From a virus: a stretch of 64,000 nucleotides of DNA. A program made the translations under genes and the position numbers. The stretch spans positions 32,001-96,000 of IMG/VR virus record IMGVR_UViG_3300042301_004349. One strand, 5' to 3'. Numbering within the stretch: position 1 is the stretch's first letter; each line of letters opens with the position of its first letter. Below are positions 32,061-64,000 of this stretch, one piece after another. The notes under the pieces are model-generated. The model saw nothing but the letters and a program-made list of their open reading frames with translations, was not told the origin of the DNA and made no database searches.

Positions 32061-32555
32061 TTAAAAAGTTTCTTCTTGAAGATAAAGTTTTATTCCAGGC
32101 ATTTCTTTATCAGCTTGTTCTATTTCATTTATATCAAATGTTCCTCCTTTTCTAAATGCAAACCTTGTATCACACCTTAATACTAAAATTTGATATAAAG
32201 GATTGTTTTTTACAGAATTATAAGTATCTATATTTATTTCCTTTATATAAACAGGGATAGTATGTATATATTTAATAAAATATCTCAACACAAATTCTGG
32301 ATTTTCTGATACATTTCCTTCTTCATCTTCAGGAGGAATAACATCATTTATGTTAAAATAATACCCATTTGCTTTATTATTTTTAACTAAACTAGATGCT
32401 AATATTAGTTGTTTTGCTCTCCCTGTATATACTTTTCCAGGATATGCTTTACCCCTAACTTCACAATAATATCCTACATAAGGGTTAAAATTTGAATCCA
32501 AATATTTTCCCCCAGTTGTATAATTTACTTTTGCTATATTTTTAGGTACTCTCAT
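32061..32555 (-). CDS. hypothetical protein (tail/baseplate region)
   Basis: 164-aa ORF translationally coupled to the hub gene. Confidence 0.55.
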   Translation of the reverse strand: MRVPKNIAKVNYTTGGKYLDSNFNPYVGYYCEVRGKAYPGKVYTGRAKQLILASSLVKNNKANGYYFNINDVIPPEDEEGNVSENPEFVLRYFIKYIHTIPVYIKEINIDTYNSVKNNPLYQILVLRCDTRFAFRKGGTFDINEIEQADKEMPGIKLYLQEETF

Positions 32556-35500: not shown

Positions 35501-36109
35501 CCCACCATAATTTCCTTGTGCCCTTTCCTCTTTTTCAAATAGTTTATTAAAAACATATTGATAATCCTTATTATTGTATTCACTATTAAATATATCAAAT
35601 GGGGCTTCTGGGGTAGTTACTAAATTTCCACTATTATCAATATAAGAAGTCCAACCCCATTCTAATAATACAGAATAACCTGGTCTCATATAAAGTAATT
35701 CTAAATCTTCTAGTTGAGTTATGTCCCAACAATTAAAATTTATTGTTACTTCTCTTAATGAACCATAAGCACCTTTTGATTTAACTTCAGCACTTGTAAC
35801 ACCAGGCATTGGTCTAATACCGTACAAATGGGTTTTACCATTTGGTGTTTGTAATGAATAGGCGTTTTCAGGACCCTTACCAACACCACCTCTTAATTTA
35901 TCATTGTATAAAGCACCCCCTGCTAAAATATAATTTTTAGCTAATGCTCCACCATCCCCATCAACCTCAACAGATGAGGACATCCTTAACCAGGATTTTG
36001 ATCCGTTATGGATTACTAAATCTGATAAACTACGTCTAGCAATAGCCTTGCTTCTTGCTATAAGTTGTTCTTTAATAGTGGGTGAAAATGATTGTTTAAA
36101 TAAAGACAT
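32555..36109 (-). CDS. large baseplate hub-like protein with C-terminal N-acetylmuramoyl-L-alanine amidase (Amidase_2)
   Basis: C-terminal VVHHTAG, QYVIGRNG.IY, WHAG..NSQSIGVE, IFGH after a Gly-rich linker; position in the tail module. Confidence 0.75.
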   Translation of the reverse strand: MSLFKQSFSPTIKEQLIARSKAIARRSLSDLVIHNGSKSWLRMSSSVEVDGDGGALAKNYILAGGALYNDKLRGGVGKGPENAYSLQTPNGKTHLYGIRPMPGVTSAEVKSKGAYGSLREVTINFNCWDITQLEDLELLYMRPGYSVLLEWGWTSYIDNSGNLVTTPEAPFDIFNSEYNNKDYQYVFNKLFEKEERAQGNYGGFLGIIKNYKWSARPDGGYDCSTTLISIGEMIESLKINYQSANLSLVALEASGYLQIQKSAFTPAPSQLKKFYQRNFISGLIYELWESIDSGNSSASSTVTDKYGVTYDMFAMDIELHGTTEDDEEFGDMDCQKYISLESLCKLINNHITVGIVAEGGNKPIIGVTTSDRPYQNGGSMSSENLKKPSTPYLLSLCHPLQISVNPSVCLIKNDVWGSFQLPEDFGTTPSGSEPTTVPGDPGPQVTNSDGTQKEMEFGGSRVTVEAAAKTVITGTVIPQGIISSGSSNNDDAIINSIINYLEACKIAGINEDSAVRELQRQYELAATVDRGKDANGKEIPNVTIGGDISYKQEQFYEFLDATLWESEIEAISLSLANLKGTDLGIIKTRKATITAQIETENKIKEIKDKQEDAADNLEFLSKLKPFSVSDALGTADPACKAGLGQIGNIYVSLRYLLKISKDPGLEGEDKTEKNTINLYDFLKKMLADIATATGNVNNFDIHVDPLDSIARIVDLNFVDPESKQDTYDKTFTFYSEDGKPTGKYNGLFSTVRSYSLESQIFSEQSSIVAIGAQTGGGELGLENDTMVGFNQGVKDRLKPRMSAMNTPKDQNEASVQLQNLLTNLEPIYEFISWMGGWEADFDLADASKYEGALRDLIAVFRALSKNPIKFKAIIPTKLSLEIDGISNLIIGHIFNIHPDLLPRGYKTDGEDIGRRLGYILTGIAHTINDNGWTTKLEGQTIILEDPDGEPINWFDVVLKLGSGNGGNGGSGGGSRSTNYTDGSGTWKESVNNRAGGRLVKEGEAVSTQNLSKYYPEYKFVKGTSDINLSKKGLTPLTESGIIDDTKLNRFNLGTIASPPTMFVVHHTAGSDGRDGREGSIHTYRVFYDRGYPAQYVIGRNGGIYRFIPDGGKGWHAGNYNSQSIGVEVVAKNDADVLPVQVEAAARLIQFLGFKKNQIFGHGELTSDRPITEGKTIKDYILNNL

Positions 36110-41756: not shown

Positions 41757-41785
41757 TAATAGGTAATAATTACTCGTATAAATAT

Positions 41786-42800: not shown

Positions 42801-42849
42801 ATAACATTTTTATTTTGTTCGTATATAAATATATAGAAAAAGAAAAATA

Positions 42850-47033: not shown

Positions 47034-47088
47034 GTTTTATATTTTTTTGTTCGTATATAAATATATAAGAAAATCCAAAAACGCAATC

Positions 47089-48769: not shown

Positions 48770-49516
48770 TTATGATATTATTCCATACCCACAATTACAA
48801 GAACTTAAGATATTACTATCTTCACAACCATATGTGTAGGTTACTAAGGAATATGCTTTAATATAATAGTTTGTATTTGCTTGGACTGTGAAAGTATAAC
48901 TTAATGATTGAAGTGTTGAAGATGAATTATTAGCTGGTTTAAATATGTTTTGATCACTTATTAAAGTTCCATTAGCAGATACTTCTAAAAATCCGTATCC
49001 TGGAGCTTCCCAACCATAACTCCCTGCATCGGGAGTAGGTAAGCCAAAATTTGCTTGAACATAAACACTATTTCCTACCCTCACCGCAGCATTCATTTGA
49101 GGAGAATATTGTGGTCCTCCAAAGAACATTCCACTTAAACCATTAGAAGGATCTAATAGAAGAGAATTTCCATTTACATACCCAAATAAATCTGTATTTA
49201 GATAAGGATTACCTTCTTGTCTCATCTCAAATAATACTGAAGATGATCTTAATGAGTTTATGTAGTTATAATTGCAAGTTAAGTTTGGAGAAGGTCCTGT
49301 AAAGAAAGTACTACCAATAGTCCAACTACTATTAGGAATAAAACCACCATCAGGTGAATCCCCAGTATAGACATGAACTGAGTTTGCTACTTCCTGACGA
49401 GTTAAACAACGGTTTGTAGCAGGTATTGATTGGCCTGCCTTCAAGCCAAGTAAATTTTCATTTACCATAGCTTGCAATTCATTTCCTGTTATCTGAAAAT
49501 TACTACTTCTAGCCAT
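48770..49516 (-). CDS. hypothetical virion/fibre-associated protein
   Basis: coupled (TAATG) to the collagen fibre gene; Ser/Asn/Gly-rich. Confidence 0.55.
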   Translation of the reverse strand: MARSSNFQITGNELQAMVNENLLGLKAGQSIPATNRCLTRQEVANSVHVYTGDSPDGGFIPNSSWTIGSTFFTGPSPNLTCNYNYINSLRSSSVLFEMRQEGNPYLNTDLFGYVNGNSLLLDPSNGLSGMFFGGPQYSPQMNAAVRVGNSVYVQANFGLPTPDAGSYGWEAPGYGFLEVSANGTLISDQNIFKPANNSSSTLQSLSYTFTVQANTNYYIKAYSLVTYTYGCEDSNILSSCNCGYGIIS

Positions 49517-52095
49517 TATTTAGATTCTAATTCTTTTATTCTAGCTTCTAATTGTTGAATTGCTTTTATCAACACACCTACTGTTGATGCAACATCCATT
49601 GTATTTTTATTGATTGTTGATAGGTCTGATGGAGTATCTTCAGCAATGAAACCAATATGGGGTGTTTGTAATTCATCGTTTTTATAGCTAAATCTAACTA
49701 CATTAACTTGATTTAATAAAATTAAAGCATCATTAGTATAAGGAATGACATTATGTTTTAAGTAACGAGATGAATTTTGGAAGAAACCATCAGCATAAAT
49801 TGTATTTCCACTTACATATACACTTGCATTTGTATAGGCACCTGTTGAGGTACCGTTTGAAATTACAATTGCTGTATTTGTTGCAGGTGAAATTGCATTA
49901 AATCCAGGACCTGGTGTTCCGGGGTCGCCTTTATCGCCTTTAAAACCTTGGAATCCTCTATCGCCTGGGTCGCCTTTATCGCCTGGGTCGCCTTTATCGC
50001 CTTTAAAACCTTGGAATCCTCTTTCTCCTGGGTCGCCTTTATCGCCTTTAAAACCTTGGAATCCTCTATCGCCTTGATCTCCTTTGTCTCCTTTTTCTCC
50101 TTTGTCGCCTTTAAATCCTTGGTCGCCTTTGTCTCCTTTTTCTCCTTTATCGCCTTTAAAGCCTTGATCACCTTTGTCGCCTTTGTCTCCTTTAAAACCT
50201 TGGAAGCCTCTATCACCTTGATCACCTTTGTCGCCTTTAAAGCCTTGGAAACCTCTGTCGCCTTGGTCTCCTTTATCGCCTTTGTCGCCTTTAAAGCCTT
50301 GGAAACCTCTGTCGCCTTGGTCGCCTTTATCGCCTTTGAAGCCTTGGAAACCTCTGTCGCCTTGGAATCCTCTGTCGCCCTGGTCGCCTTTGTCGCCTTT
50401 ATCACCTTTTAATCCTATGTCACCTTGGAAGCCTCTGTCTCCTTGAAAACCTCTGTCGCCTTGGTCGCCTTTGTCACCTTTATCGCCTTTGAAACCTTGA
50501 AAGCCTCTGTCGCCTTGGTCGCCTTTGTCTCCTTTGAAGCCTTGAGTTCCAATATCGCCTTTATCGCCTTTTAATCCTGTAAAACCTTGGAAGCCTCTGT
50601 CGCCTTGGTCACCTTTGTCGCCTTTAAAGCCTTGAGTTCCTGTACTACCTTGATCACCTTTATCGCCTTTTAATCCTTGAACTCCTATACTACCTTGATC
50701 ACCTGTTGCTCCTACAGTCCCCTGAGGGCCTTGAGCTCCATTTGTACCTGCTATACCTTGAGCACCCTGTATACCAGTATCTCCCCTATCACCTGTTCTT
50801 GCAAATGTAATAATAATGTCTAAATCATTTGTAAATGAACTTACACCTGATAGCCAGGTAACAGGAACTTCAAAATAATTTGTGTTGTGAGTATGAGCTC
50901 CAGTTATTGAAAATAAAGCAAAATTTGTTGTTGATCCTTTTTCAGAAACGGTAAAATGTCCTTTAATTGCTGAAGTTGAATCATCAATTGTTTGTAAATA
51001 GTTGTATACAGAAACACTAGCATCATCTACCTCGCTTATATATAATACTGAGGCTGATGGTAGTGATAAGTTGTTTAATTTTAATTTTCCATTTCCAGGA
51101 ATTGTATTTGATGTATTTGTACTAAATGTATAATCAAAAGCAGCACCACCAAAATTACCTGTTAGACCTTGGTGACCTTGTGGTCCTTGAATCCCCTGAG
51201 CTCCAAATCCCGTTTGGCCTTGAATACCTTGAGGACCTATTGGTCCTTGAGGACCAGGAACTGTAGAATCATTTCCTGTTATACCTTGAAAACCTATATC
51301 ACCTTTAGCTCCTTGGATACCTTGGTTACCTGAGGGGCCTTGTATGCCTTGATCACCTTTTTCTCCTTGGTCACCTTTTATTCCTTGTATACCTTGATTA
51401 CCTGCTGAACCTTGAATACCCTGAATGCCAATAGGGCCTTGTATACCTTGATCACCAGTTGATCCTTGGTCACCTTTAATACCTACAGCTCCTTGAATGC
51501 CTTGAATACCTATAGGACCCTGGATGCCTTGATTGCCTATAGGGCCTGTAGTGCCTTGAATACCAACAGGACCTTGTATACCTTGGTCGCCAGTATCGCC
51601 TTTATCTCCTTGATCACCTTTCACACCTATACTACCTTGTACACCGATAGGGCCTTGTATACCTTGAAAACCTATACTACCTTGATCACCTTTTGCTCCT
51701 GTACTTCCTTGTACACCTATACCACCTTGAGCTCCTGTAGCACCTTGATCGCCTGATGGGCCTTGTATACCTTGGTCTCCTGTGTCACCTTTATTGCCTT
51801 TTGATCCTTGAGCACCTGTTGATCCTTGGACACCTTGAGCTCCATGATCACCTTGACTGCCTGTATCACCTTTAATACCTTGAATGCCTTGAGCACCAAC
51901 GGGACCTACAATACCTTGAGGTCCTATTATTCCTTGGGGGCCAGTTGCTCCTGTTAATCCAGTAGCTCCTTGAGCTCCTTGGGCACCATTTGATACAGTA
52001 ATTTGATCTATACTACCACTCAATTCGACCCAGTTTGTATCCATCTCTTCCCATGTGAGTGGACGACCTAGATCTGATCTTAAAGATAAAGCCAT
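49516..52095 (-). CDS. collagen-like tail fibre with C-terminal peptidase S74 intramolecular chaperone
   Basis: two long (Gly-X-Y)n tracts; SSRYLKHN...HIGFIAED...LIKAIQQL. Confidence 0.9.
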   Translation of the reverse strand: MALSLRSDLGRPLTWEEMDTNWVELSGSIDQITVSNGAQGAQGATGLTGATGPQGIIGPQGIVGPVGAQGIQGIKGDTGSQGDHGAQGVQGSTGAQGSKGNKGDTGDQGIQGPSGDQGATGAQGGIGVQGSTGAKGDQGSIGFQGIQGPIGVQGSIGVKGDQGDKGDTGDQGIQGPVGIQGTTGPIGNQGIQGPIGIQGIQGAVGIKGDQGSTGDQGIQGPIGIQGIQGSAGNQGIQGIKGDQGEKGDQGIQGPSGNQGIQGAKGDIGFQGITGNDSTVPGPQGPIGPQGIQGQTGFGAQGIQGPQGHQGLTGNFGGAAFDYTFSTNTSNTIPGNGKLKLNNLSLPSASVLYISEVDDASVSVYNYLQTIDDSTSAIKGHFTVSEKGSTTNFALFSITGAHTHNTNYFEVPVTWLSGVSSFTNDLDIIITFARTGDRGDTGIQGAQGIAGTNGAQGPQGTVGATGDQGSIGVQGLKGDKGDQGSTGTQGFKGDKGDQGDRGFQGFTGLKGDKGDIGTQGFKGDKGDQGDRGFQGFKGDKGDKGDQGDRGFQGDRGFQGDIGLKGDKGDKGDQGDRGFQGDRGFQGFKGDKGDQGDRGFQGFKGDKGDKGDQGDRGFQGFKGDKGDQGDRGFQGFKGDKGDKGDQGFKGDKGEKGDKGDQGFKGDKGEKGDKGDQGDRGFQGFKGDKGDPGERGFQGFKGDKGDPGDKGDPGDRGFQGFKGDKGDPGTPGPGFNAISPATNTAIVISNGTSTGAYTNASVYVSGNTIYADGFFQNSSRYLKHNVIPYTNDALILLNQVNVVRFSYKNDELQTPHIGFIAEDTPSDLSTINKNTMDVASTVGVLIKAIQQLEARIKELESK
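49905..50794 (-). repeat. collagen triple-helix repeat, charged (GDK/GDQ/GDR/GFQ/GFK)
   Basis: uninterrupted Gly-X-Y; 9-nt periodic DNA. Confidence 0.95.
51155..51987 (-). repeat. collagen triple-helix repeat (GIQ/GAQ/GPI/GDQ)
   Basis: Gly-X-Y tract with one short interruption. Confidence 0.95.
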
Positions 52096-52127
52096 AATTA
52101 TTTTTTAATTTGTCACGTATAAATATG

Positions 52128-52152
52128 AAAGGGGATGATTGCTCATCCCCTT
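52128..52152 (-). terminator. probable intrinsic terminator
   Basis: AAGGGGATGA-GCAA-TCATCCCCTT followed by T. Confidence 0.65.
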
Positions 52153-52177
52153 CTAAAAACATATATTAAATATTTAA

Positions 52178-52636
52178 TTAACAGTCTTCGTAGCTTCCTG
52201 TTCCAAATACTTCAATAACTTTTTCTTTTAATTTAGCATATCCAAATTCGAAAATGTTTGCTTCTTCTACTGCAGTAAAATCAGGAACCATTACTGTTAC
52301 ACTTTCAGAAACTGTTGTTTCTACTGTTGTATAAGTGATGCTACCAGATTCACCAACACTTTGAGAAGGCATGTTTACTGTTCTAAAAACAACACTTTCA
52401 GATGGAACTCTTAAATCAACATATAAGCTTTCACCAATTTGTTGGTTACGAGCAGTCATACCACCCATACCTGGGTAAAGGTTTGATCCTGAAGTTGCTG
52501 CTTCTTCGTCTAAAAATAGTTGAGTTTGAAAATTAGCATATCCGCCTTTTTGAATATTGTAATTAACAATACGTAAATATGCTTCGCTTGTAATACCTAA
52601 ATCAGTACCAATTTGAGTTGTGATTTTAATTGCCAT
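52178..52636 (-). CDS. hypothetical fibre-associated protein
   Basis: 152-aa ORF with upstream ATATTTAT motif. Confidence 0.6.
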   Translation of the reverse strand: MAIKITTQIGTDLGITSEAYLRIVNYNIQKGGYANFQTQLFLDEEAATSGSNLYPGMGGMTARNQQIGESLYVDLRVPSESVVFRTVNMPSQSVGESGSITYTTVETTVSESVTVMVPDFTAVEEANIFEFGYAKLKEKVIEVFGTGSYEDC

Positions 52637-52677
52637 GTTTAATTTGCTTTATGTTTTATAATTTGCGTGTATAAATA

Positions 52678-53268
52678 TTAACGATAGTGTTCTCCCCCAA
52701 GCCACAACACAAAAGATCTACGAGTTCCAACAGTAACTGGTGAAACACGGTGCATCATATATGAAGGAAATATAACTACTGTGCCTTTACCGCGAGGTGC
52801 GGTGATATGATCTTTACCCCCTTGCCAAATATCTAAATCTCCACCTTCATATTCGCTAGGATCGGATAATTGGACCGTAATAGACACTTTACGGAGCGAT
52901 AACATCCCAGGCCCAATGTCTTGATGCCAAATATAATGTCCACCTTCACTAGCATAGTATTCAGTGTATTGTATTTGTTCTGGGGCCGAATGTAAGTCAA
53001 AATCCCATAAATTTTTATTAGCTTCAGCAGCCATATCCATTAGTTTGTTATATAGCCAATTCCATTTGAAATTTTGTGGAACCCATTTAACAGAAGATGA
53101 ACGTGATTCTTTATCATCACCACCAACTGTAGTAGCTTTAATAAAATCAATATCAGCAACATCTTTGTATATTCTATCTAATTCTTCACTATCAAAACCA
53201 TTATTAAAATAGTAATAATTTTGTAGATCAGCGTGTTTCTTAGGAAATAAATAACCAGTTTGTACCAT
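52678..53268 (-). CDS. 2OG-Fe(II) oxygenase (PKHD / prolyl-4-hydroxylase-like)
   Basis: WHQD (HxD), RKVSITVQLS..YEGGDL, FPS..MHRV.PV..G.R. Confidence 0.92.
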   Translation of the reverse strand: MVQTGYLFPKKHADLQNYYYFNNGFDSEELDRIYKDVADIDFIKATTVGGDDKESRSSSVKWVPQNFKWNWLYNKLMDMAAEANKNLWDFDLHSAPEQIQYTEYYASEGGHYIWHQDIGPGMLSLRKVSITVQLSDPSEYEGGDLDIWQGGKDHITAPRGKGTVVIFPSYMMHRVSPVTVGTRRSFVLWLGGEHYR

Positions 53269-53277
53269 TTTTATAGT

Positions 53278-53850
53278 TTATTCAGTTTCAAAAATATTCA
53301 TTTTACTTGAGTATGGCTCTTCAGCCCATAAATTTATAGCAATCGCTCTTCTAGTTCCTGTTAAAACAGTATCTACTCTATGAGGTACCTTCCCAGCATC
53401 AAATATAATTAGACGATTTGGTCTACATAACACAATATCAGGAGGGTTAGATTCACCATCTGTATACACATTTAAGGCACCACCTGTGAATTCTGATCCT
53501 ATTGGGTAATAAACACATCCAACTGTTGGTGACATTCTATCTCCTGTTGCTTTTCTATAAGCAACATCATCATCGTAATGCATTTCTAAATAGTTTCTAA
53601 ATCTTCCATTTGGGTCTGCTTCTTGTACGCCTGTCCAATATTCAAATCCATCTATTGTATATAGTTTATTAATTGGACAATTATTTTTCCAAATATATTC
53701 TATTAGTTTCTTTTTAGTAGTATTAACTTCACTATTCCACCAACCATTCCAATAGTAATAAACACCAGGATCCTTAAAAAAGGTAGTGTCATTAGCTATT
53801 TCATCTAGTAAGGTTTGATCTGTTATAAAATCATCAAATACTGTTATCAT
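53278..53850 (-). CDS. 2OG-Fe(II) oxygenase
   Basis: MHYD (HxD), GGAL, NRLIIFD...PHRV......R. Confidence 0.85.
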   Translation of the reverse strand: MITVFDDFITDQTLLDEIANDTTFFKDPGVYYYWNGWWNSEVNTTKKKLIEYIWKNNCPINKLYTIDGFEYWTGVQEADPNGRFRNYLEMHYDDDVAYRKATGDRMSPTVGCVYYPIGSEFTGGALNVYTDGESNPPDIVLCRPNRLIIFDAGKVPHRVDTVLTGTRRAIAINLWAEEPYSSKMNIFETE

Positions 53851-53861
53851 TTTATTTTATT

Positions 53862-55676
53862 TTAGGGATTATAAATATAGTTTACATATCCTTCATCATC
53901 ACCAAATCTACTTTCAACCCATAAAGGATGTTGTGGGTTTTCTTTATAAGCCCAATCTTCCATTCCTAATTCTTCAAATCGTTTTGCAATTCTCTCATTA
54001 TAATGATACATAATTGTTCTTACTCTACGTTGAATATCAGCACGAGATAAATCGTGTGTATTTTGTCCTGAGTGGTTGTTATAGATGAATTGAATATAGC
54101 CAAGTTTAGGTATTTTACAAATTTTAGTATGTAAAAATGTTCTAACTATTAATTCATAATCATCAGCTATAGCTAAATCTCTATTATGTCCACCAACAGC
54201 AAAATAAGTATCTCTTCTCCAAGCACGAACGTGATTTGGAACACCAACAATATGTCTTATTGTTTTTGGATTAATATTTTGTGTAATTACAACATCCCAA
54301 TTATAACCTCTATATTGTTCTTTTCTATATTTACCATATCCAAAAGCAAAACCATCATCATATGTTAATGATTCCCATTTTTCATTTATTTCAACACTAT
54401 CATTGAAAAAGAAACCAGCATCTGGGTATGCTTTTGTAGCATTAACTAGATCCATTGTACAGTTGTCTGTTAATAAATCATCATGGTCTAATTCTGCTAG
54501 TAAGAATCCTCTTGTTAAGCAAGCTGCTCTATATTTTGATTCCCCAATAATACCACCTGTTTTTTCTCTAAAATCATATACTCTTACTCTCGGATCTCGT
54601 CTAGCTATTTCTTCAGCTATCTTAAGTGTTTTACCACCATCAGATGAATCATTAACCAACACCCATTCCCAATCTTCGTACGTTTGTTCAAGCAATGAAC
54701 GAAAAGTATTCCATAATTTATTTCCAGTATTATATATTGGGGTAAAATATGATACTAAATGATTATTTGACGCTGATAGCATTTGGTTCATAGCTACATT
54801 ATAAGCTATATCTCCATTTTCAGCATCATCTTTTTCAACATTTAACCATTTTTTTCTTACTTCAAGAGGTTGAGTAGCTAAATTAGGAAATTCTGAAAAG
54901 TGTTTTCCAATAGTAATAATTGAATCTGGTTTGAATGTTGTTAGCAATTCTTCAATTTTAGTATCATTTGGTACATTTAATACATTTAAACTTGTATCTT
55001 CATATCCTAAATGTTTAGTACTTTTCAATTCTGTTGTACCACCTATATAAAGTACTTTTGGTACTCTAGCTTTTTTAGGTTGGGTTAAACGATTATAGTA
55101 GCAAAGTTCTGAATGGATGAAATGGAATTTATCAGAGAATTGTTTGTATAAATTTTCAATAAATACTCCATCACCGCAATATCCACCTTCATATCTACCT
55201 TGTTTATATAGACTTTGTTTAATAACATATTGAGCTGAGTCTATATGTTTTAATTTCATATGTTCAGGACCTACATTTCTAACTTCTAAGCCAGTAAAGT
55301 CCTTTTTATCAACAAATTGTTCAAACACAAATGCTTCTTTATCAGGATTTGCCTCTATTTCTGATTTAATTGTATTATAGAAATCAGGATGAATAATATT
55401 ATCATCATCTAATATTACAATATAATTTTCAGGGTATAATTTTTCAATTATATCGCTTAATTGAGGGTATAAATAATCACTACCATCTCCTTTTATAAAA
55501 TGGAATCTAGTACTTGGAGATTGCAATTCACTTAATAATTCAGCATCAATGTCTTTTAATGTTGTTGTATCAAAAATGATATGCCAAACAACAGTTATAG
55601 GACTAGGGAATACTGTATTCTTAATTGTTAATAAATTCTGCTGTCGCGTACAACGCGTTAATATATGCATTACCAT
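53862..55676 (-). CDS. two-domain GT-A glycosyltransferase (GT2-like)
   Basis: N-domain ILDDDN...IDSAQY...DG.FI; C-domain FTPIYN, WEWVLVND.S, ELDHDD, DDYEL..R. Confidence 0.88.
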   Translation of the reverse strand: MVMHILTRCTRQQNLLTIKNTVFPSPITVVWHIIFDTTTLKDIDAELLSELQSPSTRFHFIKGDGSDYLYPQLSDIIEKLYPENYIVILDDDNIIHPDFYNTIKSEIEANPDKEAFVFEQFVDKKDFTGLEVRNVGPEHMKLKHIDSAQYVIKQSLYKQGRYEGGYCGDGVFIENLYKQFSDKFHFIHSELCYYNRLTQPKKARVPKVLYIGGTTELKSTKHLGYEDTSLNVLNVPNDTKIEELLTTFKPDSIITIGKHFSEFPNLATQPLEVRKKWLNVEKDDAENGDIAYNVAMNQMLSASNNHLVSYFTPIYNTGNKLWNTFRSLLEQTYEDWEWVLVNDSSDGGKTLKIAEEIARRDPRVRVYDFREKTGGIIGESKYRAACLTRGFLLAELDHDDLLTDNCTMDLVNATKAYPDAGFFFNDSVEINEKWESLTYDDGFAFGYGKYRKEQYRGYNWDVVITQNINPKTIRHIVGVPNHVRAWRRDTYFAVGGHNRDLAIADDYELIVRTFLHTKICKIPKLGYIQFIYNNHSGQNTHDLSRADIQRRVRTIMYHYNERIAKRFEELGMEDWAYKENPQHPLWVESRFGDDEGYVNYIYNP

Positions 55677-56605
55677 TCTACATCAAAGAAAAATAGGTGA
55701 AAGAATCTAGCATTTTCAATTTCGTCTCCGAAATAACCTGTTGCTGCGTGTATTGCTTTTGAATCAAACATAACTAATCTATTGTAAATGTTAGCTATAC
55801 TATCTACTAATTCGAAGGTTGATTTATCGTAGAAATTCATTTCACTACTTAATCCCTTAAAGGTATTATAATACTCATCTCCTCCTGGTTGATCGAACCT
55901 AGTAGCTCCTGTTATTTTGCTTTTATATGTAGCTGTACCTGTTTGTAATGGGGCATCTGGTGTTAAATAAACCATTGCAGCATACGTTTGAGAATCAACG
56001 TGATAAACTATTGGATCTTGAGAGGTACAATATTGAAAAACACCATTTGCATATGATGAATGGTTCCAATTTGTAATTTTCTTACCTAAAATTTCTTCAA
56101 ATTTTTCTTTAGTACCGTTTAGAATAAATCTATCGTAACTGCGTTTGCCTTTATGATAACCTGATTCTTTGAAATCAAGATTATTCATAGCATATTCTCT
56201 TACTAAATCAGGATTGTCATAAAAATTATCTACAACGACAACACCTTTTTTAGCTGTTTGAATAAATCCAGAATGGTATACTATCCATTTTTTAAAAGAA
56301 TCAATATTATCTACTACTGAATTGTCTTGTAATATGATTCCAAGAGGTTTGTTTATGTCTTGTTCTGTAAGAAGAATTTTAAATTCAACTAGATCTGTTG
56401 GGATGTTAGGGTAAAATTCCTTTACATCTGGTCTTGATTCAAATCCAGGAGAAATAATTTCTTCACCAATTGTGAATGCTTTAATAGGTTGTGTTGCGTG
56501 TGATATCCATCCTTTAATAGTGTAAACATTATTATTAGAGAAAACATCATCAATGTACCACAACACACCATCAACATTAGTTAAATGATTAATATGATCG
56601 GCCAT
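55670..56605 (-). CDS. 2OG-Fe(II) oxygenase-like protein (DUF6445-like) with extra N-terminal domain
   Basis: VVDNFY.NPD.VR, YHVD (HxD), VYLTPDAP..GT, YNRLVMFD...IH, R. Confidence 0.8.
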   Translation of the reverse strand: MADHINHLTNVDGVLWYIDDVFSNNNVYTIKGWISHATQPIKAFTIGEEIISPGFESRPDVKEFYPNIPTDLVEFKILLTEQDINKPLGIILQDNSVVDNIDSFKKWIVYHSGFIQTAKKGVVVVDNFYDNPDLVREYAMNNLDFKESGYHKGKRSYDRFILNGTKEKFEEILGKKITNWNHSSYANGVFQYCTSQDPIVYHVDSQTYAAMVYLTPDAPLQTGTATYKSKITGATRFDQPGGDEYYNTFKGLSSEMNFYDKSTFELVDSIANIYNRLVMFDSKAIHAATGYFGDEIENARFFHLFFFDVEW

Positions 56606-56622
56606 AAAAGTTATTGTTTTAT

Positions 56623-56654
56623 GGAATGTACGATAAAACTATTTAATTTCCAAA
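56623..56654 (-). promoter_or_regulatory. Bacteroidota-type promoter driving the oxygenase/GT operon
   Basis: TTTG-N20-TACATTCC, similar to the host consensus TTTG-N19-21-TAnnTTTG. Confidence 0.55.
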
Positions 56655-56658
56655 CCTT

Positions 56659-59600
56659 TTATTTATTATCTACTAAGTAGTTAATTTGTTGTTTTAGATC
56701 TTCGATTTGTTGTTGTTGTTCTTTAATACCTTCAATTAATAGAGGTACAATTCTATCATACTTTACAGTAAGATAATTTTCACCAGTCTTAGATACTACT
56801 TCTCCTGTTTCAGCCACACCTTGCATATCAAATGGAGCTAAAGAAACAGCTTGAGGCAATACAGCCTGAATTTGTTGAGCAGACACACCCGCTTGTTCTT
56901 TTTGGTTTGTATAACCAAGACTACGTGCTAATTCATTTTCCACATATACAAATCCTTCTAATGATTTAATCTTTTCTATAGCATCTGTAATAGTATTTAT
57001 CTTAGTTTTTAATCTTTCATCAGAATAATATGCTGTAACATCTCCTGTACCATAATAGTTACCACTTCCAAAGTTACCACCACCCGCATTCAAACCACAT
57101 AATGATGAACCATTAATTACTTGGTGATGCCATGTTGCTCCGTTACCACAGTTCCAAACTACACCATAACTTTCAGTCATTCTTGTTCCTGTAGAGTTTC
57201 CTATTTCTGCACCAGATCCTGAAAGAACCATAGTTCCCGCTAAACGAAAGTTAGCTGTTCTTACTATATCATTAGATGATATAGCTCCATTTACATCAAG
57301 CTTATATGCAGGAGTAGTAGTGCCTATGCCTACTCTACTAGGGTAAGTATTTGTAGCACCAGATACGTTAAGAAGTATATTTCCAGCATGGTCTCTAACT
57401 CTAAACCCTTCATTAGAATGGGTACCTATAACAGTCCAATACCCATCCTGCATAATATACTTATTCAGGTCAGCATTATCAGCTGTTTTGAATACAACTT
57501 TACCTGATGTTCCACTTGAACCTGATTCAAATATATAATCACCACCCTGAGTAATTTTAAAGTAGTCTCCACGAAAACCTGTACCAATACTAAACTCGTT
57601 ACCTGCTGAACCTGTATGTCCAATAGACCAAGTAGTAGGGCCATTAAAACCTATTCTACCATAGTATTGACCACCACCATAATCGTTATACCCAAGTCTA
57701 ATTCTAGTGTCTCCACTAGGTGTAGTAATTGTAAAAGGTCTTGCATTTGCACTAAACAAACCATCAGTTGTATACCCTGAAAATGTTGCATTAAATCCTA
57801 TATTAGATGCCCCATTAACAATGTACCCAGGGCCGTTAGAAAGTTGACTAAGATTAGTAAGATTACCACTATGCCACATTGTTACCCAACCACCCCATGT
57901 ACCTGCATCAGCAGATCTCATATATAATCTGTTCCCACCTGTATCAAAAAATAATTGTTGGTGATAATTGCCCGGGTGAGTATCTATTTGTAATAAAGCA
58001 CCCCCATTATGAATAACAGTTGGTCTATTACTCCAATCACCCGTAGATCCTCTGTATAAACCTGTACCATTAAATGCATTTACATTAACACCAGGTTGAG
58101 CAGCTTGATATAAAGAATCAAGAATCCCATACCCACTAAGTGTTGTAGGTTTTGATGAAACATTAGCAAATGATATACCAGTTATATATCCAGGCCCGTT
58201 GCTTAATTGGTTAAGATTAGTAAGATTACCACTATGATATACTGTGTTACCATTCCAGTTAATGCCTGTTCTAGTAATTCTAGCTATCTCTTGGTAAGTT
58301 CCAGTTGAAGCAGATTTAAAATACCAACCTGTTGTGTCATTTGCTTCAGCAAACTCTATAAATGTTGTTTGGTGGACCGCTGTAAATGTAGGACTAGAAG
58401 TAGCACCTGTAACAGATGCTCTAAAAGTCATCATATGGTTATTGTTTTCATAACCAGCTATTATACCATATGTATTTACACCCCCTGTACTTACAGTTAA
58501 TCTTCCTCCTGTTATTTGAAGGGACCCCGTTAATGTTCCTCCTGAAAGTGGTAAATAATTGCCTGGTGTAAAATTACCACTATGCCAAACATCTACATAA
58601 GAAGAATATGCTGTTCCTGAACCAAATGTCTGTTGCCATATCCTCATTCCAATTCCACTCTTAAGAAACATTACTAAGTTATCAGAACCTCCAGAACTAT
58701 CAGAATAAGAACGTAAATGTAAATAATCAGCATAAGGAGCACTATCATTATTAGCCCAAGATGTAAACCCAAATCTTAATTCAGCTGCATTATCTTCAGA
58801 AGGAGATATTGTTCTATTATCTCTAGAAGATAATCTACCTGAAGCACCAGATATTGTTGCAGAAGAAGTAATATATCCAGATGGATTACTACTATTATAA
58901 GGAGTATATCCTAAAGCTGTAGTAACTTGACTACTTGTTATACCTGTAAGATAAGATTGATTAGTAACCCAAGTTCTAGTAGCTACTTCATTTCCTCCAT
59001 ATCTTAATATACCACCATTTGATTGTAGGTCTAAATCAAATGAAGCAAAATCACTTGTTCTAGCTGCTTGAACTGCAACTTTATATCCACCGGCAGCTCC
59101 AAGAGATGCTACATATAAATGTACATCAGACCCACCAATCCTTGCATGAGCTACAGAATCTGAGTTTAGAGAAGATGGTCTTGTTAATCCATTACCTATA
59201 TTTACTCTACCATCTAGATTAAGAGTTGTAGATGTAGATGCCCCACGTCCTGTAACAGTAGCTAAAGTTTCACTTGCTGCTAAACCTGAAATATTTGTTT
59301 GGTCTCCTGTATTTGTACCACTTAAGTTTGCAGCACTAAGATTACCTGTAAAGGCAGCAGTACCATCTAAAGCCATACTAAATCTTGTTTCAGAATCTAA
59401 TGCTGCCCAACTTCTAGCTATTTTAAATTTATCAGCATCTGAATTATCAATACCCATTGACCACCCAATAACATCACCTATGTCAAAAGATAATATCGGA
59501 TCTCCACCTGTTGCAGTGCTTGTTCTTAAAGAAAGAACTGCATTTGATGTACTAGTAGTACCAGTATTATATAAATAAATTACTGGAACATTAGTATTTG

Positions 59601-60744
59601 CAGGAGTGCTATAGGTGTTATTAGCATTTGTAATAGTAAAACCAGTATTAGTTGTACCGTTTCTTAATATTACATTTTGTAAAGTACTTGTTTCAGTATA
59701 AGATGTTAAATATGTAGAATTATCATAGCTTATAGTAGCACCACTTGCTTTTACAAAACCAGTACCATTAATATTTGCAGTACCAGTAGCACCTTGGATA
59801 CCTTGAAAGCCTTGATCACCCTTAGCACCTTGAAAGCCTTGATTACCTTGAAATCCAAATCCTTGGAAACCTTGGTCGCCTTTAGCTCCTTGGAAACCTT
59901 GATCGCCTTTCGCTCCTTGGAAACCTTGGTTGCCTTGGAATCCAAAACCTTGAAAGCCTTGATCACCCTTTGCACCTTGATTTCCTTGATCTCCCTTAGC
60001 ACCTTGTGCTCCTGTATTTCCTTGAGGTCCTGTTGGGCCTTGAGCACCAGTATTTCCTTGGTCACCTTTTACACCCTGAGCTCCTTGAGAACCCTGAATG
60101 CCTTGCACAGACATATCTGTAGTAAATGCCCAAGTTCCTCCACTACGTAAATACAATTTACCATAATCAGGATCTGATGTTGATAGAGAACCTGCTACTA
60201 AACCGAATTGTCCTTCAGGACAAGTGGTGTCAGCTAAAAGTGCAGCTACGCTGTTATATGTTTGATAGATTATAAATCCCTGGCCTGTAATACCTTGGAA
60301 TCCTTGGTCGCCCTTAAATCCTTGATCTCCTTTTATACCTTGAATACCTTGGATGCCTTGTGCTCCTGTAGTGCCTTGGTCACCTTGAAAGCCTTGATCG
60401 CCTTTAGTTCCTTGGATACCTTGAAATCCTTGGAAGCCTTGGTCGCCCTGATCTCCCTGAAAGCCCTGGTCACCTTTAGTTCCTTGAATACCTTGTGCAC
60501 CTTGAATGCCTTGAAAACCTTGACGTCCCTGAGCACCTTGTGCTCCATCGGCACCAACATAACCATTAGCACCCTGTGGTCCCTGGTCTCCCTGAGCCCC
60601 AACTGGTGTGAAATGTATTTCTCCAGTACTTTGATTAAGTACTAGATACTTGTCTAATGAACCTGTGTCTTGTGTTAAAGTAGGTAGTTTAAAACTACCT
60701 GATACTTCTAATGAACCTGTAACGGAGGCGTTGTGTATTCTCAT
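56659..60744 (-). CDS. collagen-containing long tail fibre with C-terminal S74 chaperone
   Basis: N-terminal Gly-X-Y tracts, modular fibre repeats (HSGNLTNL.QLSNGPGY), YSDERLK...GVSAQ...LIEGIKEQ. Confidence 0.9.
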   Translation of the reverse strand: MRIHNASVTGSLEVSGSFKLPTLTQDTGSLDKYLVLNQSTGEIHFTPVGAQGDQGPQGANGYVGADGAQGAQGRQGFQGIQGAQGIQGTKGDQGFQGDQGDQGFQGFQGIQGTKGDQGFQGDQGTTGAQGIQGIQGIKGDQGFKGDQGFQGITGQGFIIYQTYNSVAALLADTTCPEGQFGLVAGSLSTSDPDYGKLYLRSGGTWAFTTDMSVQGIQGSQGAQGVKGDQGNTGAQGPTGPQGNTGAQGAKGDQGNQGAKGDQGFQGFGFQGNQGFQGAKGDQGFQGAKGDQGFQGFGFQGNQGFQGAKGDQGFQGIQGATGTANINGTGFVKASGATISYDNSTYLTSYTETSTLQNVILRNGTTNTGFTITNANNTYSTPANTNVPVIYLYNTGTTSTSNAVLSLRTSTATGGDPILSFDIGDVIGWSMGIDNSDADKFKIARSWAALDSETRFSMALDGTAAFTGNLSAANLSGTNTGDQTNISGLAASETLATVTGRGASTSTTLNLDGRVNIGNGLTRPSSLNSDSVAHARIGGSDVHLYVASLGAAGGYKVAVQAARTSDFASFDLDLQSNGGILRYGGNEVATRTWVTNQSYLTGITSSQVTTALGYTPYNSSNPSGYITSSATISGASGRLSSRDNRTISPSEDNAAELRFGFTSWANNDSAPYADYLHLRSYSDSSGGSDNLVMFLKSGIGMRIWQQTFGSGTAYSSYVDVWHSGNFTPGNYLPLSGGTLTGSLQITGGRLTVSTGGVNTYGIIAGYENNNHMMTFRASVTGATSSPTFTAVHQTTFIEFAEANDTTGWYFKSASTGTYQEIARITRTGINWNGNTVYHSGNLTNLNQLSNGPGYITGISFANVSSKPTTLSGYGILDSLYQAAQPGVNVNAFNGTGLYRGSTGDWSNRPTVIHNGGALLQIDTHPGNYHQQLFFDTGGNRLYMRSADAGTWGGWVTMWHSGNLTNLSQLSNGPGYIVNGASNIGFNATFSGYTTDGLFSANARPFTITTPSGDTRIRLGYNDYGGGQYYGRIGFNGPTTWSIGHTGSAGNEFSIGTGFRGDYFKITQGGDYIFESGSSGTSGKVVFKTADNADLNKYIMQDGYWTVIGTHSNEGFRVRDHAGNILLNVSGATNTYPSRVGIGTTTPAYKLDVNGAISSNDIVRTANFRLAGTMVLSGSGAEIGNSTGTRMTESYGVVWNCGNGATWHHQVINGSSLCGLNAGGGNFGSGNYYGTGDVTAYYSDERLKTKINTITDAIEKIKSLEGFVYVENELARSLGYTNQKEQAGVSAQQIQAVLPQAVSLAPFDMQGVAETGEVVSKTGENYLTVKYDRIVPLLIEGIKEQQQQIEDLKQQINYLVDNK
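59782..60600 (-). repeat. collagen triple-helix repeats (GFQ/GDQ/GAK/GIQ) in two tracts
   Basis: Gly-X-Y at about 60278-60600 and about 59782-60103. Confidence 0.93.
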
Positions 60745-60818
60745 TATTTTATACCTGGATTATTCTGGTATAAATATTAATTCTTAAATGTTAGTTAACA
60801 AATAATAATATATTGTTT

Positions 60819-61211: not shown

Positions 61212-64000
61212 TTACTTTTGTGATTTTAATTCGTCTATTTCTGCTTTTAATTCTTTGATTGCTTCGATAAGCACACCAACTATATTACCATACTTAACAC
61301 CATACTCATCTACGTCAGCAGCATAAGTGACAACTTCAGGTAATACTTCGTTTATTTCTTGAGCAATAACCCCTGTTTGTCTTCCTTTTTCTACTTCATC
61401 TATTTTAGTATAATACACACCTCTTAATTGTGTTACTTTATCTAAAGCATTATCTATAGTAGTAATATCTGTTTTCTTTCTTCTATCTGAGTATGCTGTA
61501 ATGTCTCCTGTTGCGTAAAGGCTACCATTAACATACACACGGTATGAACTAGATGTTGATGAATCACCAAGACCTAGACATACATTTCCTCTATGCCAGT
61601 ACCATGGCCAACGTCCACCCTGATTTTCACAGTATAAACCACCATTTCCACCTTCGTGCATATAGTTGCTAAAATATCCAGCATCATCTTTAATTAAAAG
61701 ACCATTGTAACCACCTTTAGCATATCCAAATATCTCCCAAGTACCATGGGATGATGATGCATTTCTTCTAAAATGTCCACCATAATCTTGTGAATATAAA
61801 CCAACATCACCATAAACCCTAAACCAGTTATTTGCATAAACAGCACCAAAAGAAGGATTTGTTTTATCAAAACCTGATAAACTTCCAGCACTACCAGTAA
61901 CATTAATACTCCATGTACCAGAGGCACCACCTCCTGTTAATGTAGGAGAGTAACTAGTATAGTTGTAATCAGTAAGTAATCTCTTCCAAGCTTTCCAGGT
62001 TCCATTATCTCCATTTCTACTTCTCATAGAAAATGAATCCCCTCCATAATCACCATTAAGTTGAATACCATACCCTGCTGCACCAAAATGTGCAACACAT
62101 CCTGTTAAAGGAGCACCATTAGAATAAGTAAATGCTGACCTATTACTAGGCATATTGTTTGCATTTGTTCCTGGGTATCCCTCAGTAAATCCATAATCAA
62201 AGAAATATCTGCCATCTAAAGTGCTAGTGTAATTGCTTGTAGTAAGGCCACCTGAAACACTTCCTGCACTGTTTGCATAGTTTACTGATTGGGATCCAAT
62301 ATTACCAGCATGTATAACAGCATTTCCAGTAGACATACCCCCACTAGTACCATTAACATAGAGCATACCTCTAATCTTAGTATTACCAGATGTATCTATT
62401 ATTAAACGACCATGATGAACATCACTACCTGACCAACCATCTCCAACCCCGTAATGGCCATTACCATCTTGTTGGTCACTGTATCCTATACTAAAAATAC
62501 CTGGGTTAAGATTAGCTATACCCATTGTCCATAGTCTATAACCTCCAGCACTTAAGTTACCACTCATTACAATATATGCCCCATGAGTACTGTTGTTAGC
62601 CGCATAGGCGTTAAGATGTAATCCAGGATAATATTCTGCATTAATAACTAATGCTTTTCTTGCATTATCATTAATAACTCTAGATGTGTTTGTTGATCCA
62701 ATAAGTAAAGCTGCTCCTGAAACTGCATTATTTACTATAAGCCTACTTAAATTTGATGTATCATTAGGATCTAGATAGTATCCTGTATCATTAGAATCGT
62801 AGAAAATTGGAGCACGTAATGAACCTGCGGCTTCTAAATATACATCAGTGTAAATATAAGAGTTAGCAATTACCATTCTTCTACTACCAGCCCACATCAT
62901 ACTAACATCATGTCCTGTATAACTTCCTATATATACAGAACTAGGAGTGTGTACATACATACCTGCTTCAATACCAGGAGATCTAGCATGTAAAACAAAT
63001 TTAACGTGAGGGCTATTACTAAATCTTACTTGTGTACCCCATCCTCCTGGATCTGACCAATCATCACCACTATCTCCTACATAAAGGTTTCTTAAACGAG
63101 AACCCCCTGCTGGGTTTAAATAATATGCTGTGTCATTTGAATCATAAAATATAGGAGCACGCATAGAGTGGTCACTAAACCAGTTTCCGCTATTATCACA
63201 ATAAGCACCCCAACTACTAGAAGTATTTAAAAATCCTATTCTACCACTATTAGTATGAATACGTCTAGTATTTTCATCAGTATCAGTCATATAGATATCG
63301 GATGATGTACTATTCCCTACGGTTAACGCTCCATATATTTGAACATTATAACTATTGTCCATTCTTAATCCCCAGTTACCTCCAGAGTTTAAGAAACCAA
63401 TTTCATTTGATGTATTAGCATATACATAACCTCTTAATGCACTCATATGACCACCAGTATAAAATCTAATTGATGATACACTAGTTGTTGATGACATATC
63501 CCAATACCCATTTGTATTAGAAGACAAGTGTTGGGTTGTTACCTGATTATATAAACCTTCATTTGAGCCATTATTTCTAAACCAGTTGTCTGCATAGACT
63601 TCAGTAAATGTTGGGGATGAACCACCTGTAACTAATCCTAATTGACTAATTAAGTGGGCAGGTGTAGATTTTCTTAAATAGTTATCTCCTGTACTTTGTG
63701 TCCATATCTGACCAATGGTAGGATTTTCTGAGTTGCCAGCAGATGAATTAAAATACGATCCAAAAATGTAGTTACCACTGATATGACCACTTCCATCTCT
63801 ATATACAATGGTATTAGCAGTAGCTGATGTTGTTGGGTTGTTAAATCCTGATATAGAACCTGCTGTACCTGTAATATGAATGCCCCAAGTGCCACTATTA
63901 GTTACAATAGTTTGCCATGCTCCTTTACCCCCACCGGTTGCTGGTCTTAAATAAAATTGACTTGTTGTACTATCATTACATGCTAAATCAAAACCTGCAA
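61212..64000 (-). CDS. tail fibre with C-terminal S74 chaperone (5' end probably beyond the window)
   Basis: frame stays open upstream of the TTG at 63527; RAPIFYDSNDT repeats; YSDRRKK...GVIAQE...LIEAIKEL. Confidence 0.85.
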   Translation of the reverse strand, partial: AGFDLACNDSTTSQFYLRPATGGGKGAWQTIVTNSGTWGIHITGTAGSISGFNNPTTSATANTIVYRDGSGHISGNYIFGSYFNSSAGNSENPTIGQIWTQSTGDNYLRKSTPAHLISQLGLVTGGSSPTFTEVYADNWFRNNGSNEGLYNQVTTQHLSSNTNGYWDMSSTTSVSSIRFYTGGHMSALRGYVYANTSNEIGFLNSGGNWGLRMDNSYNVQIYGALTVGNSTSSDIYMTDTDENTRRIHTNSGRIGFLNTSSSWGAYCDNSGNWFSDHSMRAPIFYDSNDTAYYLNPAGGSRLRNLYVGDSGDDWSDPGGWGTQVRFSNSPHVKFVLHARSPGIEAGMYVHTPSSVYIGSYTGHDVSMMWAGSRRMVIANSYIYTDVYLEAAGSLRAPIFYDSNDTGYYLDPNDTSNLSRLIVNNAVSGAALLIGSTNTSRVINDNARKALVINAEYYPGLHLNAYAANNSTHGAYIVMSGNLSAGGYRLWTMGIANLNPGIFSIGYSDQQDGNGHYGVGDGWSGSDVHHGRLIIDTSGNTKIRGMLYVNGTSGGMSTGNAVIHAGNIGSQSVNYANSAGSVSGGLTTSNYTSTLDGRYFFDYGFTEGYPGTNANNMPSNRSAFTYSNGAPLTGCVAHFGAAGYGIQLNGDYGGDSFSMRSRNGDNGTWKAWKRLLTDYNYTSYSPTLTGGGASGTWSINVTGSAGSLSGFDKTNPSFGAVYANNWFRVYGDVGLYSQDYGGHFRRNASSSHGTWEIFGYAKGGYNGLLIKDDAGYFSNYMHEGGNGGLYCENQGGRWPWYWHRGNVCLGLGDSSTSSSYRVYVNGSLYATGDITAYSDRRKKTDITTIDNALDKVTQLRGVYYTKIDEVEKGRQTGVIAQEINEVLPEVVTYAADVDEYGVKYGNIVGVLIEAIKELKAEIDELKSQK

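Follow-up and report, generated by a model that had tools for sequence, protein, structure and literature searches.

A DUF6445 oxygenase and a dual glycosyltransferase linked to collagen-like tail fibres: a candidate fibre-modification module in a T4-like phage

Whether a phage may chemically modify its own collagen-like tail fibres is the question raised by the stretch of viral DNA analysed here, a window of 64,000 nucleotides taken from the IMG/VR virus record IMGVR_UViG_3300042301_004349, where it spans bases 32001-96000; the record is 171,171 bp long and has direct terminal repeats. The window holds genes for three 2-oxoglutarate- and Fe(II)-dependent (2OG-Fe(II)) oxygenases, ox311, ox190 and ox196, and for a two-domain glycosyltransferase (GT), GT604, placed among genes for collagen-like fibres. 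Collagen hydroxylation and glycosylation are established in animals and mimivirus, and an earlier note on this DNA had proposed that the phage applies both to its own fibres by means of these enzymes. The source phage is contractile-tailed, with a G+C content of about 32%, and its sheath protein shares 53% identity with the one of Flavobacterium phage vB_FspM_immuto, which by this protein is the closest isolate; the source phage is a T4-like myophage in which the module is set inside the tail-fibre block. All genes concerned lie on the minus strand, at the positions and in the orientation previously reported, and are transcribed in the order colB, ox311, GT604, ox190, ox196, a 152-aa gene and colA (Table 1). 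The enzymes are indeed flanked by two collagen fibre genes, colA and colB, as had been described, but the genome holds five such genes in a contiguous row (859, 1361, 1300, 1311 and 1641 aa, with 63-191 Gly-X-Y triplets each; window 49516 to past 64000, genome 81516-106439), and the cluster is placed between the first and the second of them.

The reading favoured here, with a probability of roughly 0.55 judged from gene context, protein families and predicted folds, is that of a late-expressed module which would hydroxylate and glycosylate collagen-like fibres. The proposal that the enzymes act on the phage's own fibres is kept for the pair formed by ox311, a DUF6445 protein, and GT604, a GT2 enzyme, in favour of which speak its linkage to collagen genes in phages and bacteria, a prolyl-hydroxylase-like fold and morphogenesis-type expression signals; it is not retained for an animal-type chemistry or for a single system of all three oxygenases.

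Lineages were counted from the best 80 IMG/VR DUF6445 loci and loci fetched earlier, clustered at 70% identity and divided into a full form (DUF6445 of ~310 aa with a dual GT of ~610 aa) and others (short or fused DUF6445 with a GT2 enzyme of ~415 aa). A collagen open reading frame (ORF) was found within 4.1 kb in 14 of the 15 full-form lineages, within 155 bp in seven and usually as the gene just upstream, versus nearby collagen in 3 of the 24 other lineages (Fisher p = 6e-7, or 4e-5 on well-flanked loci), counts which shared ancestry and position in the fibre block could inflate. Co-occurrence across related phages, which the earlier note had named as a check of its proposal, is in this way borne out for the DUF6445-GT2 pair. 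Relatives of ox311 and GT604 in IMG/VR and metagenome assemblies always formed an adjacent pair, down to 45% identity, and the gene contexts of the full-form pair differ between lineages. Collagen genes are present in each of seven larger records with DUF6445, the source genome being one of them, and Flavobacterium phage immuto has neither DUF6445 nor collagen. Metagenomes contain hundreds of full-length relatives of the dual GT, some of them on marine contigs with ribosomal protein S21, PhoH and DnaJ, a gene content that resembles that of pelagimyophages. A nucleotide search of the cluster in a phage collection returned a single 190-bp match, in a 735-kb uncultured phage whose GT and ox196 homologues stand ~600 kb apart.

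The association was also found in bacterial chromosomes. In Thiothrix and Thiolinea, including the isolate Thiothrix eikelboomii ATCC 49788 (locus L226), a DUF6445-GT2-collagen island lies between dnaE and rnhB/lpxB; its DUF6445 protein is full-length (40% identity over residues 7-309) and its GT2 is homologous to the GT604 C domain. As seen in L226 and in a Thiolinea metagenome-assembled genome (MAG; locus L221, 7333-12707), the island consists of a 179-aa ORF, the DUF6445 gene, a GT2 gene whose product has a methyltransferase-like tail, a 165-aa ORF and the gene for a collagen-like protein of 524 aa, which contains G-S-T-G-A-Q repeats and is rich in Cys and Trp at its C-terminus. The trio is present in MAGs of Vicinamibacterales and Vampirovibrionaceae as well, and on a short MAG contig of Acidimicrobiaceae, and a Methylococcus MAG contig carries DUF6445 and a collagen ORF, the GT not being detected on that contig. 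That the linkage merely follows from position in a fibre block was therefore rejected as the sole explanation, because the trio forms a chromosomal island in Thiothrix.

The oxygenase of the pair, ox311, scored 44.4 bits against Pfam DUF6445 (PF20043; curated cut-off 24) and is thus a member of this uncharacterised family; its nearest Atlas cluster is 99% DUF6445 (TM 0.77), and a tblastn search with it finds Syn9 gp52. Its structural model (pLDDT 94.5) comprises an N-terminal beta-sandwich (residues 1-110) and a double-stranded beta-helix catalytic domain (118-311) with the motif H202-x-D204...H286...R300, in which H202 and D204 are invariant among 59 sequences and H286 and R300 are conserved in at least 90%. 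The HxD...H...R motifs noted for all three oxygenases were confirmed, with the metal- and 2OG-binding residues intact, and ox311, ox190 and ox196 all belong to the 2OG-Fe(II) oxygenase superfamily with this double-stranded beta-helix fold. In a fold search of ~48,000 PDB representatives, the top structural matches of the ox311 catalytic domain included OGFOD1 (Z 13.8), the Trichoplax prolyl hydroxylase TaPHD (13.2), Pseudomonas PPHD (12.6), Tpa1 (12.5) and PHD2 (12.3), the Dictyostelium hydroxylase 6t8m also being matched (Z 11.7). Below the prolyl hydroxylases ranked the viral collagen prolyl 4-hydroxylase (P4H; Z 11.3), the mimivirus L230 lysyl hydroxylase (10.6) and LH3 (9.8), and nucleic-acid oxygenases of AlkB type and TET (Z 9.5-10.4, TET 9.6) were likewise below the protein hydroxylases. 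Small-molecule and sugar oxygenases were interleaved with the prolyl hydroxylases (HalB 12.5, PolD 11.9, AviO1 11.4, HygX 10.7), several of them above L230 and LH3. The structure comparison proposed earlier therefore came out closest to protein prolyl hydroxylases, with PLOD, TET and AlkB types lower, but with small-molecule enzymes in between, and the modelled fold leans towards a protein hydroxylase while leaving the substrate class unsettled. The N-terminal domain (1-115), used as query in an Atlas feature search, brought up no usable match. DUF6445 is frequent in cyanophages and also present in giant viruses, and in phages and giant viruses it is found fused to GT2, GT17, GT25, GT47, FkbM methyltransferase and tetratricopeptide repeat domains. 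The short-form DUF6445 protein of Synechococcus phage S-SSM7 (locus L132, 198-213 kb) is annotated as a 'minor coat protein' (PHROG 1644), a label that looks wrong; its gene lies in a ~13-kb cluster with nucleotide-sugar epimerases, UDP-glucose dehydrogenase, several GTs and three other 2OG oxygenases.

GT604 is made up of an N domain (residues 1-200, DxD at 90-92), a small alpha/beta linker domain (~205-300) and a GT2 C domain (305-600, DxD at 397-400). The GT2 match lies at residues 311-450 (PF00535, E = 5.8e-20; PF13641 also matches), and the C domain reached Z 20-23 to PmHS2, WrtF, SpsA and RmlT, which places it among the GT2/GT-A enzymes. Whole-model matches of the AlphaFold2 (AF2) model (pLDDT 88.6) were led by the chondroitin polymerase K4CP, aligned over residues 1-590 (Z 23.7, 440 residues aligned), heparosan synthase 2 (PmHS2) and LARGE1 matching as well. 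DxD motifs are invariant in both halves (D90-D92 and D397-H-D399-D400), and the N half shows a beta-alpha-beta pattern with D91 and N93 invariant after strand 4. A profile of the N domain found nothing significant among PDB sequences (best E 0.1-0.3, including SpsA at 0.29), and the GT-A assignment of this half is based on the model and its K4CP alignment. On these grounds the dual GT-A architecture suggested earlier holds, GT604 being predicted to carry two GT-A domains, each with a DxD, in one chain as in K4CP, PmHS2 and LARGE1. A kinship with glycosyltransferases of GT25 or PLOD type, also suggested, was not found: GT604 gave no match at E up to 0.1 to Glyco_transf_25 (PF01755), the domain of the GT25 collagen galactosyltransferases (COLGALT). 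The GT604 gene shares its first 7 nt with the end of ox311, and the two genes are predicted from this arrangement to be translationally coupled. None of the enzymes reached the cut-off of any family in an NCBIfam scan, and all four are without hydrophobic segments.

The expression signals of the cluster are shared with morphogenesis genes. The motif TATTTATA, whose reverse complement is the T4 late-promoter box TATAAATA, occurs over the whole genome in 54 copies on the coding strand versus 6 on the other, and 27 start codons have a copy 8-45 nt upstream, among them those of the terminase large subunit, head-completion, baseplate-hub and fibre genes, of ox190 and of the 152-aa gene. By its distribution it looks like a phage late or morphogenesis promoter element, and the copy at 60769..60776 is the probable promoter of a colB-ox311-GT604 unit. 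Neither TATTTATA nor a terminator-like site was found in the colB-ox311 gap, and the hairpin downstream of the 152-aa gene likely closes a transcription unit that includes the enzymes. The earlier note had given the enzymes a host-type promoter of their own at 56623-56654, distinct from that of the fibre genes, and expression before the late fibre genes. None of the three points was upheld: a sigma-70 scan picked up no site at 56623-56654 (43 promoter-like sites overall versus 50 expected), TATTTATA precedes ox190 and the 152-aa gene as it does the fibre genes, and the cluster follows colB without a terminator. The simplest reading of these signals is that the enzyme cluster would be co-transcribed with the fibre genes late in infection.

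The fibres themselves were then considered as substrates. Both colA and colB match Pfam Collagen (PF01391; E = 7e-90 and 3e-27) and Peptidase_S74 (PF13884), with 191 and 71 Gly-X-Y triplets, respectively, in runs of at least six, and both have the make-up of collagen triple-helix fibres with an S74 intramolecular chaperone. The abundance of Lys at position Y, on which an animal-type chemistry had been proposed, is real in the source genome (26% of triplets in colA, 14% in colB and 15% in colE), but it does not accompany the enzymes elsewhere, as would a substrate of the PLOD/LH3 or mimivirus L230 type. Y-Lys amounts to 0-2% in the partner fibres of lineages L010, L053, L051, L005 and L007, to just 1-2% in the fibres adjacent to GTs 84-87% identical to GT604, and to 0-3% in other lineages and Thiothrix, whose collagen-like protein has Y-Lys in 4 of 135 triplets and not a single Pro. 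Y-Pro, the substrate of collagen prolyl 4-hydroxylase (C-P4H; viral vCPH), amounts to 0-3% across all five fibres of the source genome and does not exceed 4% in those partner fibres of relatives that were examined. The six Y-position Pro of colA are grouped towards the C-terminal end of the helix. There, at window 49905-50040, the final helix triplets change from G-D-Q to G-D-P where they adjoin the S74 domain, and no other triplets of the five fibres are plausible as classical P4H sites. Because the partner collagens are poor in Y-Lys and Y-Pro and GT604 is a GT2 enzyme, a Lys/Pro pathway is unlikely as a general mechanism, and Lys and Pro are unlikely as general target residues.

The two smaller oxygenases are less tightly bound to collagen. 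Both hold the PF13640-type catalytic domain of C-P4H and vCPH (ox190 29.6 bits, ox196 52.9 bits, cut-off 27). H91, D93, H157 and R167 of ox190 are invariant in 32 sequences, and its profile gave weak matches only in the PDB, to P3H1, PHD2 and PiuC (E 0.03-0.2); ox196 is nearer in sequence to PKHD/PiuC than to P4H. The ox190 slot is variable, being filled in phages with a GT 84-87% identical by a small GT2, by a methyltransferase or by an unknown gene, and ox190 orthologues (52-57% identity; L214-L217, ENA and JGI contigs) lie between RecA/UvsX-like and DnaB-like helicase genes in other T4-like phages. In the source genome this RecA/UvsX-DnaB slot is empty, ox190 being found in the fibre block instead. 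The ox196 family counts 353 phage records, mostly of cyanophages, and is widespread in marine phages in records without annotated collagen context; retained in some relatives of the cluster, ox196 is an accessory gene. The assignment of all three oxygenases to one system was accordingly given up. By their distribution, ox190 and ox196 are not collagen-specific, and the DUF6445-GT pair is the only conserved unit.

Table 1. Features of the fibre block and copies of the TATTTATA motif, in window coordinates
Feature	Position	Strand	Description
colA	49516..52095	-	859 aa; two Gly-X-Y blocks (191 triplets); C-terminal Peptidase_S74 chaperone domain
TATTTATA motif	52118..52125	-	late-promoter-like; 22 nt upstream of colA start
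terminator-like hairpin	52128..52153	-	11 pairs; after 152-aa gene
152-aa gene	52178..52636	-	no known family; conserved beside ox196 and colA in close relatives
TATTTATA motif	52670-52677	-	33 nt upstream of 152-aa gene
ox196	52678..53268	-	196 aa; PF13640 Fe/2OG oxygenase, PKHD/PiuC-like; H115-x-D117...H173...R183
ox190	53278..53850	-	190 aa; PF13640 Fe/2OG oxygenase; H91-x-D93...H157...R167
GT604	53862..55676	-	604 aa; soluble two-domain GT-A glycosyltransferase (N half assigned from model)
TATTTATA motif	53870..53877	-	19 nt upstream of ox190 start, within 3' end of GT604 gene
ox311	55670..56605	-	311 aa; DUF6445 (Syn9 gp52-like) Fe/2OG oxygenase; conserved partner of GT604
colB	56659..60744	-	1361 aa; collagen-like, S74 chaperone domain; ends 53 nt before ox311
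TATTTATA motif	60769..60776	-	24 nt upstream of colB
colC	61212..64000	-	third collagen-like fibre, 1300 aa; extends beyond window end
TATTTATA motif, other window copies (examples)	421-428, 993-1000, 41777-41784, 42824-42831, 47056-47063	coding strand	

Elsewhere in the window, at positions 32555-36109, lies the gene for a possible tail-associated lysin or tape-measure fusion; its product is 1184 aa long, and the last 130 residues give matches to PHROGs of endolysins and amidases.

If the favoured reading is right, ox311 and GT604 would be transcribed late in infection together with the fibre gene colB. The oxygenase would then oxidise, most likely hydroxylate, a residue of the collagen-like fibre or else the first sugar, and the two GT-A domains would attach two different sugars or a repeating disaccharide in the cytoplasm, before fibre assembly, while ox196 and, less certainly, ox190 could contribute further hydroxylations. 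Genes swapped in among relatives (small GT2s, methyltransferases, ATP-grasp ligases, a sulfotransferase with adenosine-5'-phosphosulfate (APS) kinase) would make the locus a variable glycan-decoration island for the fibres. A more specific and rather speculative form of this reading, doubtful as a whole, is that full-form DUF6445 is a new hydroxylase class for collagen-like proteins, acting not on Pro or Lys but, for example, on a Thr, Gln, Asn or Asp position shared among prokaryotic Gly-X-Y repeats, that its N-terminal beta-sandwich recognises the triple helix, and that the K4CP-like dual GT-A enzyme builds on the fibre a glycosaminoglycan-like chain of repeating units, sulfated in relatives with sulfotransferase and APS kinase, so that some phage fibres and the Thiothrix surface collagen would be proteoglycan-like.

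Other lineages with the pair carry additions such as ATP-grasp ligases, sulfotransferase with APS kinase, an RmlC-like epimerase and GT1/GT9 enzymes. In loci L049 (5104-8494) and L051 (4503-7143) the pair is accompanied by a Sulfotransfer_1 enzyme and two or three more 2OG oxygenases, with APS kinase in L049, gene sets which suggest sulfated products. In L010 (5538-6650) the collagen fibre gene and the DUF6445 gene are separated by a 370-aa ORF, whose match to an intein splicing domain is weak and falls short of the Pfam cut-off. A complete 183-kb relative (L213, G008:C1:89000-108900) has, between its sheath and collagen fibre genes, a GT1/GT9 protein, a GT2, four tandem 2OG oxygenases, a 1109-aa protein joining GT1, FkbM methyltransferase, GT2 and rhamnosyl O-methyltransferase, and a 1732-aa DUF5122 beta-propeller protein.

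Several observations weigh against fibre modification by the pair. In the same 183-kb relative DUF6445 is absent although collagen fibres are many, and consequently the enzymes are not required for collagen fibres as such. The full-form-like lineage L012 has no collagen in a 66-kb fragment and another such lineage, L111, none within 10 kb, short-form DUF6445 occurs in glycan clusters without nearby collagen, as in S-SSM7, and the phage lineages share ancestry, so that their counts are not fully independent. The residues common to all partner collagens are only Gly, Gln and Thr, and at position Y only Gln and Thr are universal. The ox311 fold does not fix the substrate class because of the interleaved small-molecule and sugar oxygenases, GT604 resembles polysaccharide polymerases (K4CP, PmHS2, LARGE1) which need no protein acceptor, and Iyer et al. 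2010 (PMC2938197) place the Syn9 gp52 family in secondary metabolism. The whole case rests on gene context and folds.

In a rival reading the enzymes would remodel a host-surface glycan, making or altering an envelope polysaccharide (lipopolysaccharide (LPS), capsule or S-layer glycan) during infection, for example to block further adsorption to infected cells, and would travel with the fibre genes only because genes for receptor binding and receptor modification are exchanged together as a host-recognition cassette. GTs of the pelagimyophage fibre or 'host recognition' cluster are interpreted as LPS modifiers in the literature (PMC7029224), the likeness of GT604 to the capsule polymerases K4CP and PmHS2 and of its C domain to the wall-teichoic-acid GTs TarP, TarS and RmlT would fit such a role, and the sulfotransferase, APS kinase, RmlC-like epimerase and GT1/GT9 genes of relatives are typical of surface-glycan clusters; the S-SSM7 short form, too, has a nucleotide-sugar setting away from fibres. 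This explanation is nevertheless considered unlikely, although it is the most serious of the rivals: the Thiothrix island contains only the oxygenase, the GT2, two small ORFs and the collagen-like gene, among housekeeping neighbours and outside phage or LPS clusters; the enzymes have no membrane segments, and no transporter or lipid-carrier family was matched among the flanking proteins scanned, which cover part of the window; the link is specific to collagen-bearing ORFs, often within 155 bp; and the promoter motif is one common to morphogenesis genes, unlike what would be expected for early host takeover.

Improbable, by comparison, is the pathway of animals and mimivirus put forward in the earlier note, in which Y-Lys and some Pro would be hydroxylated by the three oxygenases and hydroxylysine then given Gal-Glc by the two GT-A domains. 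The source fibres taken alone would invite it, with their Y-Lys content and the G-D-P run at the end of the colA helix, as would the membership of ox190 and ox196 in the P4H-type family PF13640, the presence of L230 and LH3 among the ox311 matches, and the hydroxylase-GT fusions that exist in the DUF6445 family as in PLOD and L230. Against it stand the near absence of Y-Lys beside GTs of 84-87% identity and in other lineages, the Thiothrix partner without Pro, the scarcity of Y-Pro throughout, the GT2 and not GT25 affiliation of GT604, the rank of lysyl hydroxylases under prolyl hydroxylases and several small-molecule oxygenases, and the replication-module home of ox190 orthologues. The same ox190 neighbourhood, between recombinase and helicase genes, would suit DNA hypermodification, in which one or more TET/JBP- or AlkB-like oxygenases act on bases and GT604 glycosylates the hydroxylated base; phage systems of 5-methylpyrimidine dioxygenase and GT are reported (bioRxiv 10.1101/2023.12.21.572611), and AlkB-type and TET structures are among the ox311 matches. 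Yet these matches rank under the protein hydroxylases, the cluster lies in the fibre block with a morphogenesis-type motif, the linkage of the DUF6445-GT pair is to collagen genes, in phages as in bacteria, and no cytosine methyltransferase was matched among the cluster genes scanned, which makes a role in DNA modification highly improbable.

The usual description of collagens from prokaryotes and phages is of unmodified proteins that are stable without hydroxyproline. Were fibre modification by the DUF6445-GT2 pair confirmed, many aquatic phages would chemically decorate their receptor-binding fibres by means of a widespread and genetically coupled module, with a bearing on host range, fibre stability, escape from host defences and the reading of 'LPS-like' GTs in phage host-recognition clusters. 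The uncharacterised DUF6445 (Syn9 gp52-like) would gain a function, the culturable Thiothrix eikelboomii ATCC 49788 would offer a tractable test system, and a data point would be added on a pre-eukaryotic origin of collagen modification. In the literature searched, no description of the DUF6445-GT2-collagen trio was found and a search on DUF6445 returned nothing; the role of viral P4H was termed 'cryptic' in a Baltic Sea study.

When set beside known systems, the module shares with PLOD/LH3 and COLGALT1 and with mimivirus L230 a 2OG-Fe(II) oxygenase with GT-A glycosyltransferases beside or on collagen-type substrates, hydroxylase-GT fusions occurring in the DUF6445 family too. It differs in that its oxygenase is a DUF6445 protein closer to OGFOD1/PHD-type prolyl hydroxylases, its GT a GT2 of K4CP-like two-domain layout with no GT25, and its partner collagens often without Y-Lys. 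K4CP, PmHS2 and LARGE1 likewise have two GT-A domains, each with DxD, in one soluble chain, but their sequence identity to GT604 is just 13-21% and GT604 has an extra linker domain of ~100 aa. In the Skp1 pathway, the PhyA prolyl hydroxylase, Gnt1 and the two-domain GT PgtA act on a single defined Pro of a globular protein; a cytoplasmic prolyl-hydroxylase-like enzyme making the site and soluble GTs, one of two domains, extending the glycan would be common to both, whereas the globular acceptor with one Pro is unlike a collagen. The Thr-rich collagen-like repeats of bacteria such as Bacillus BclA carry O-glycans, in that case with no oxygenase partner and with other GT families. Mycobacteriophage virion glycosylation (Freeman et al. 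2023, via PMC12619734) resembles the module in that phage-encoded GTs decorate the phage's own structural proteins and differs in having no oxygenase partner and other GT families; it is the C-termini of capsid and tail-tube proteins that are reported to be modified, not fibres. A precedent in neighbourhood logic is that of the bacterial dioxygenase-sulfotransferase operons predicted by Iyer et al. 2010 (PMC2938197) to modify co-encoded collagen-like or tail-fibre-like proteins. There the partner of the dioxygenase is a sulfotransferase, whereas in the present cluster it is a GT2/dual GT-A enzyme within a phage fibre block; in both, a 2OG dioxygenase would act on a collagen-like or fibre-like protein whose hydroxyl is then derivatised, and sulfotransferase with APS kinase recurs in relatives of the present cluster.

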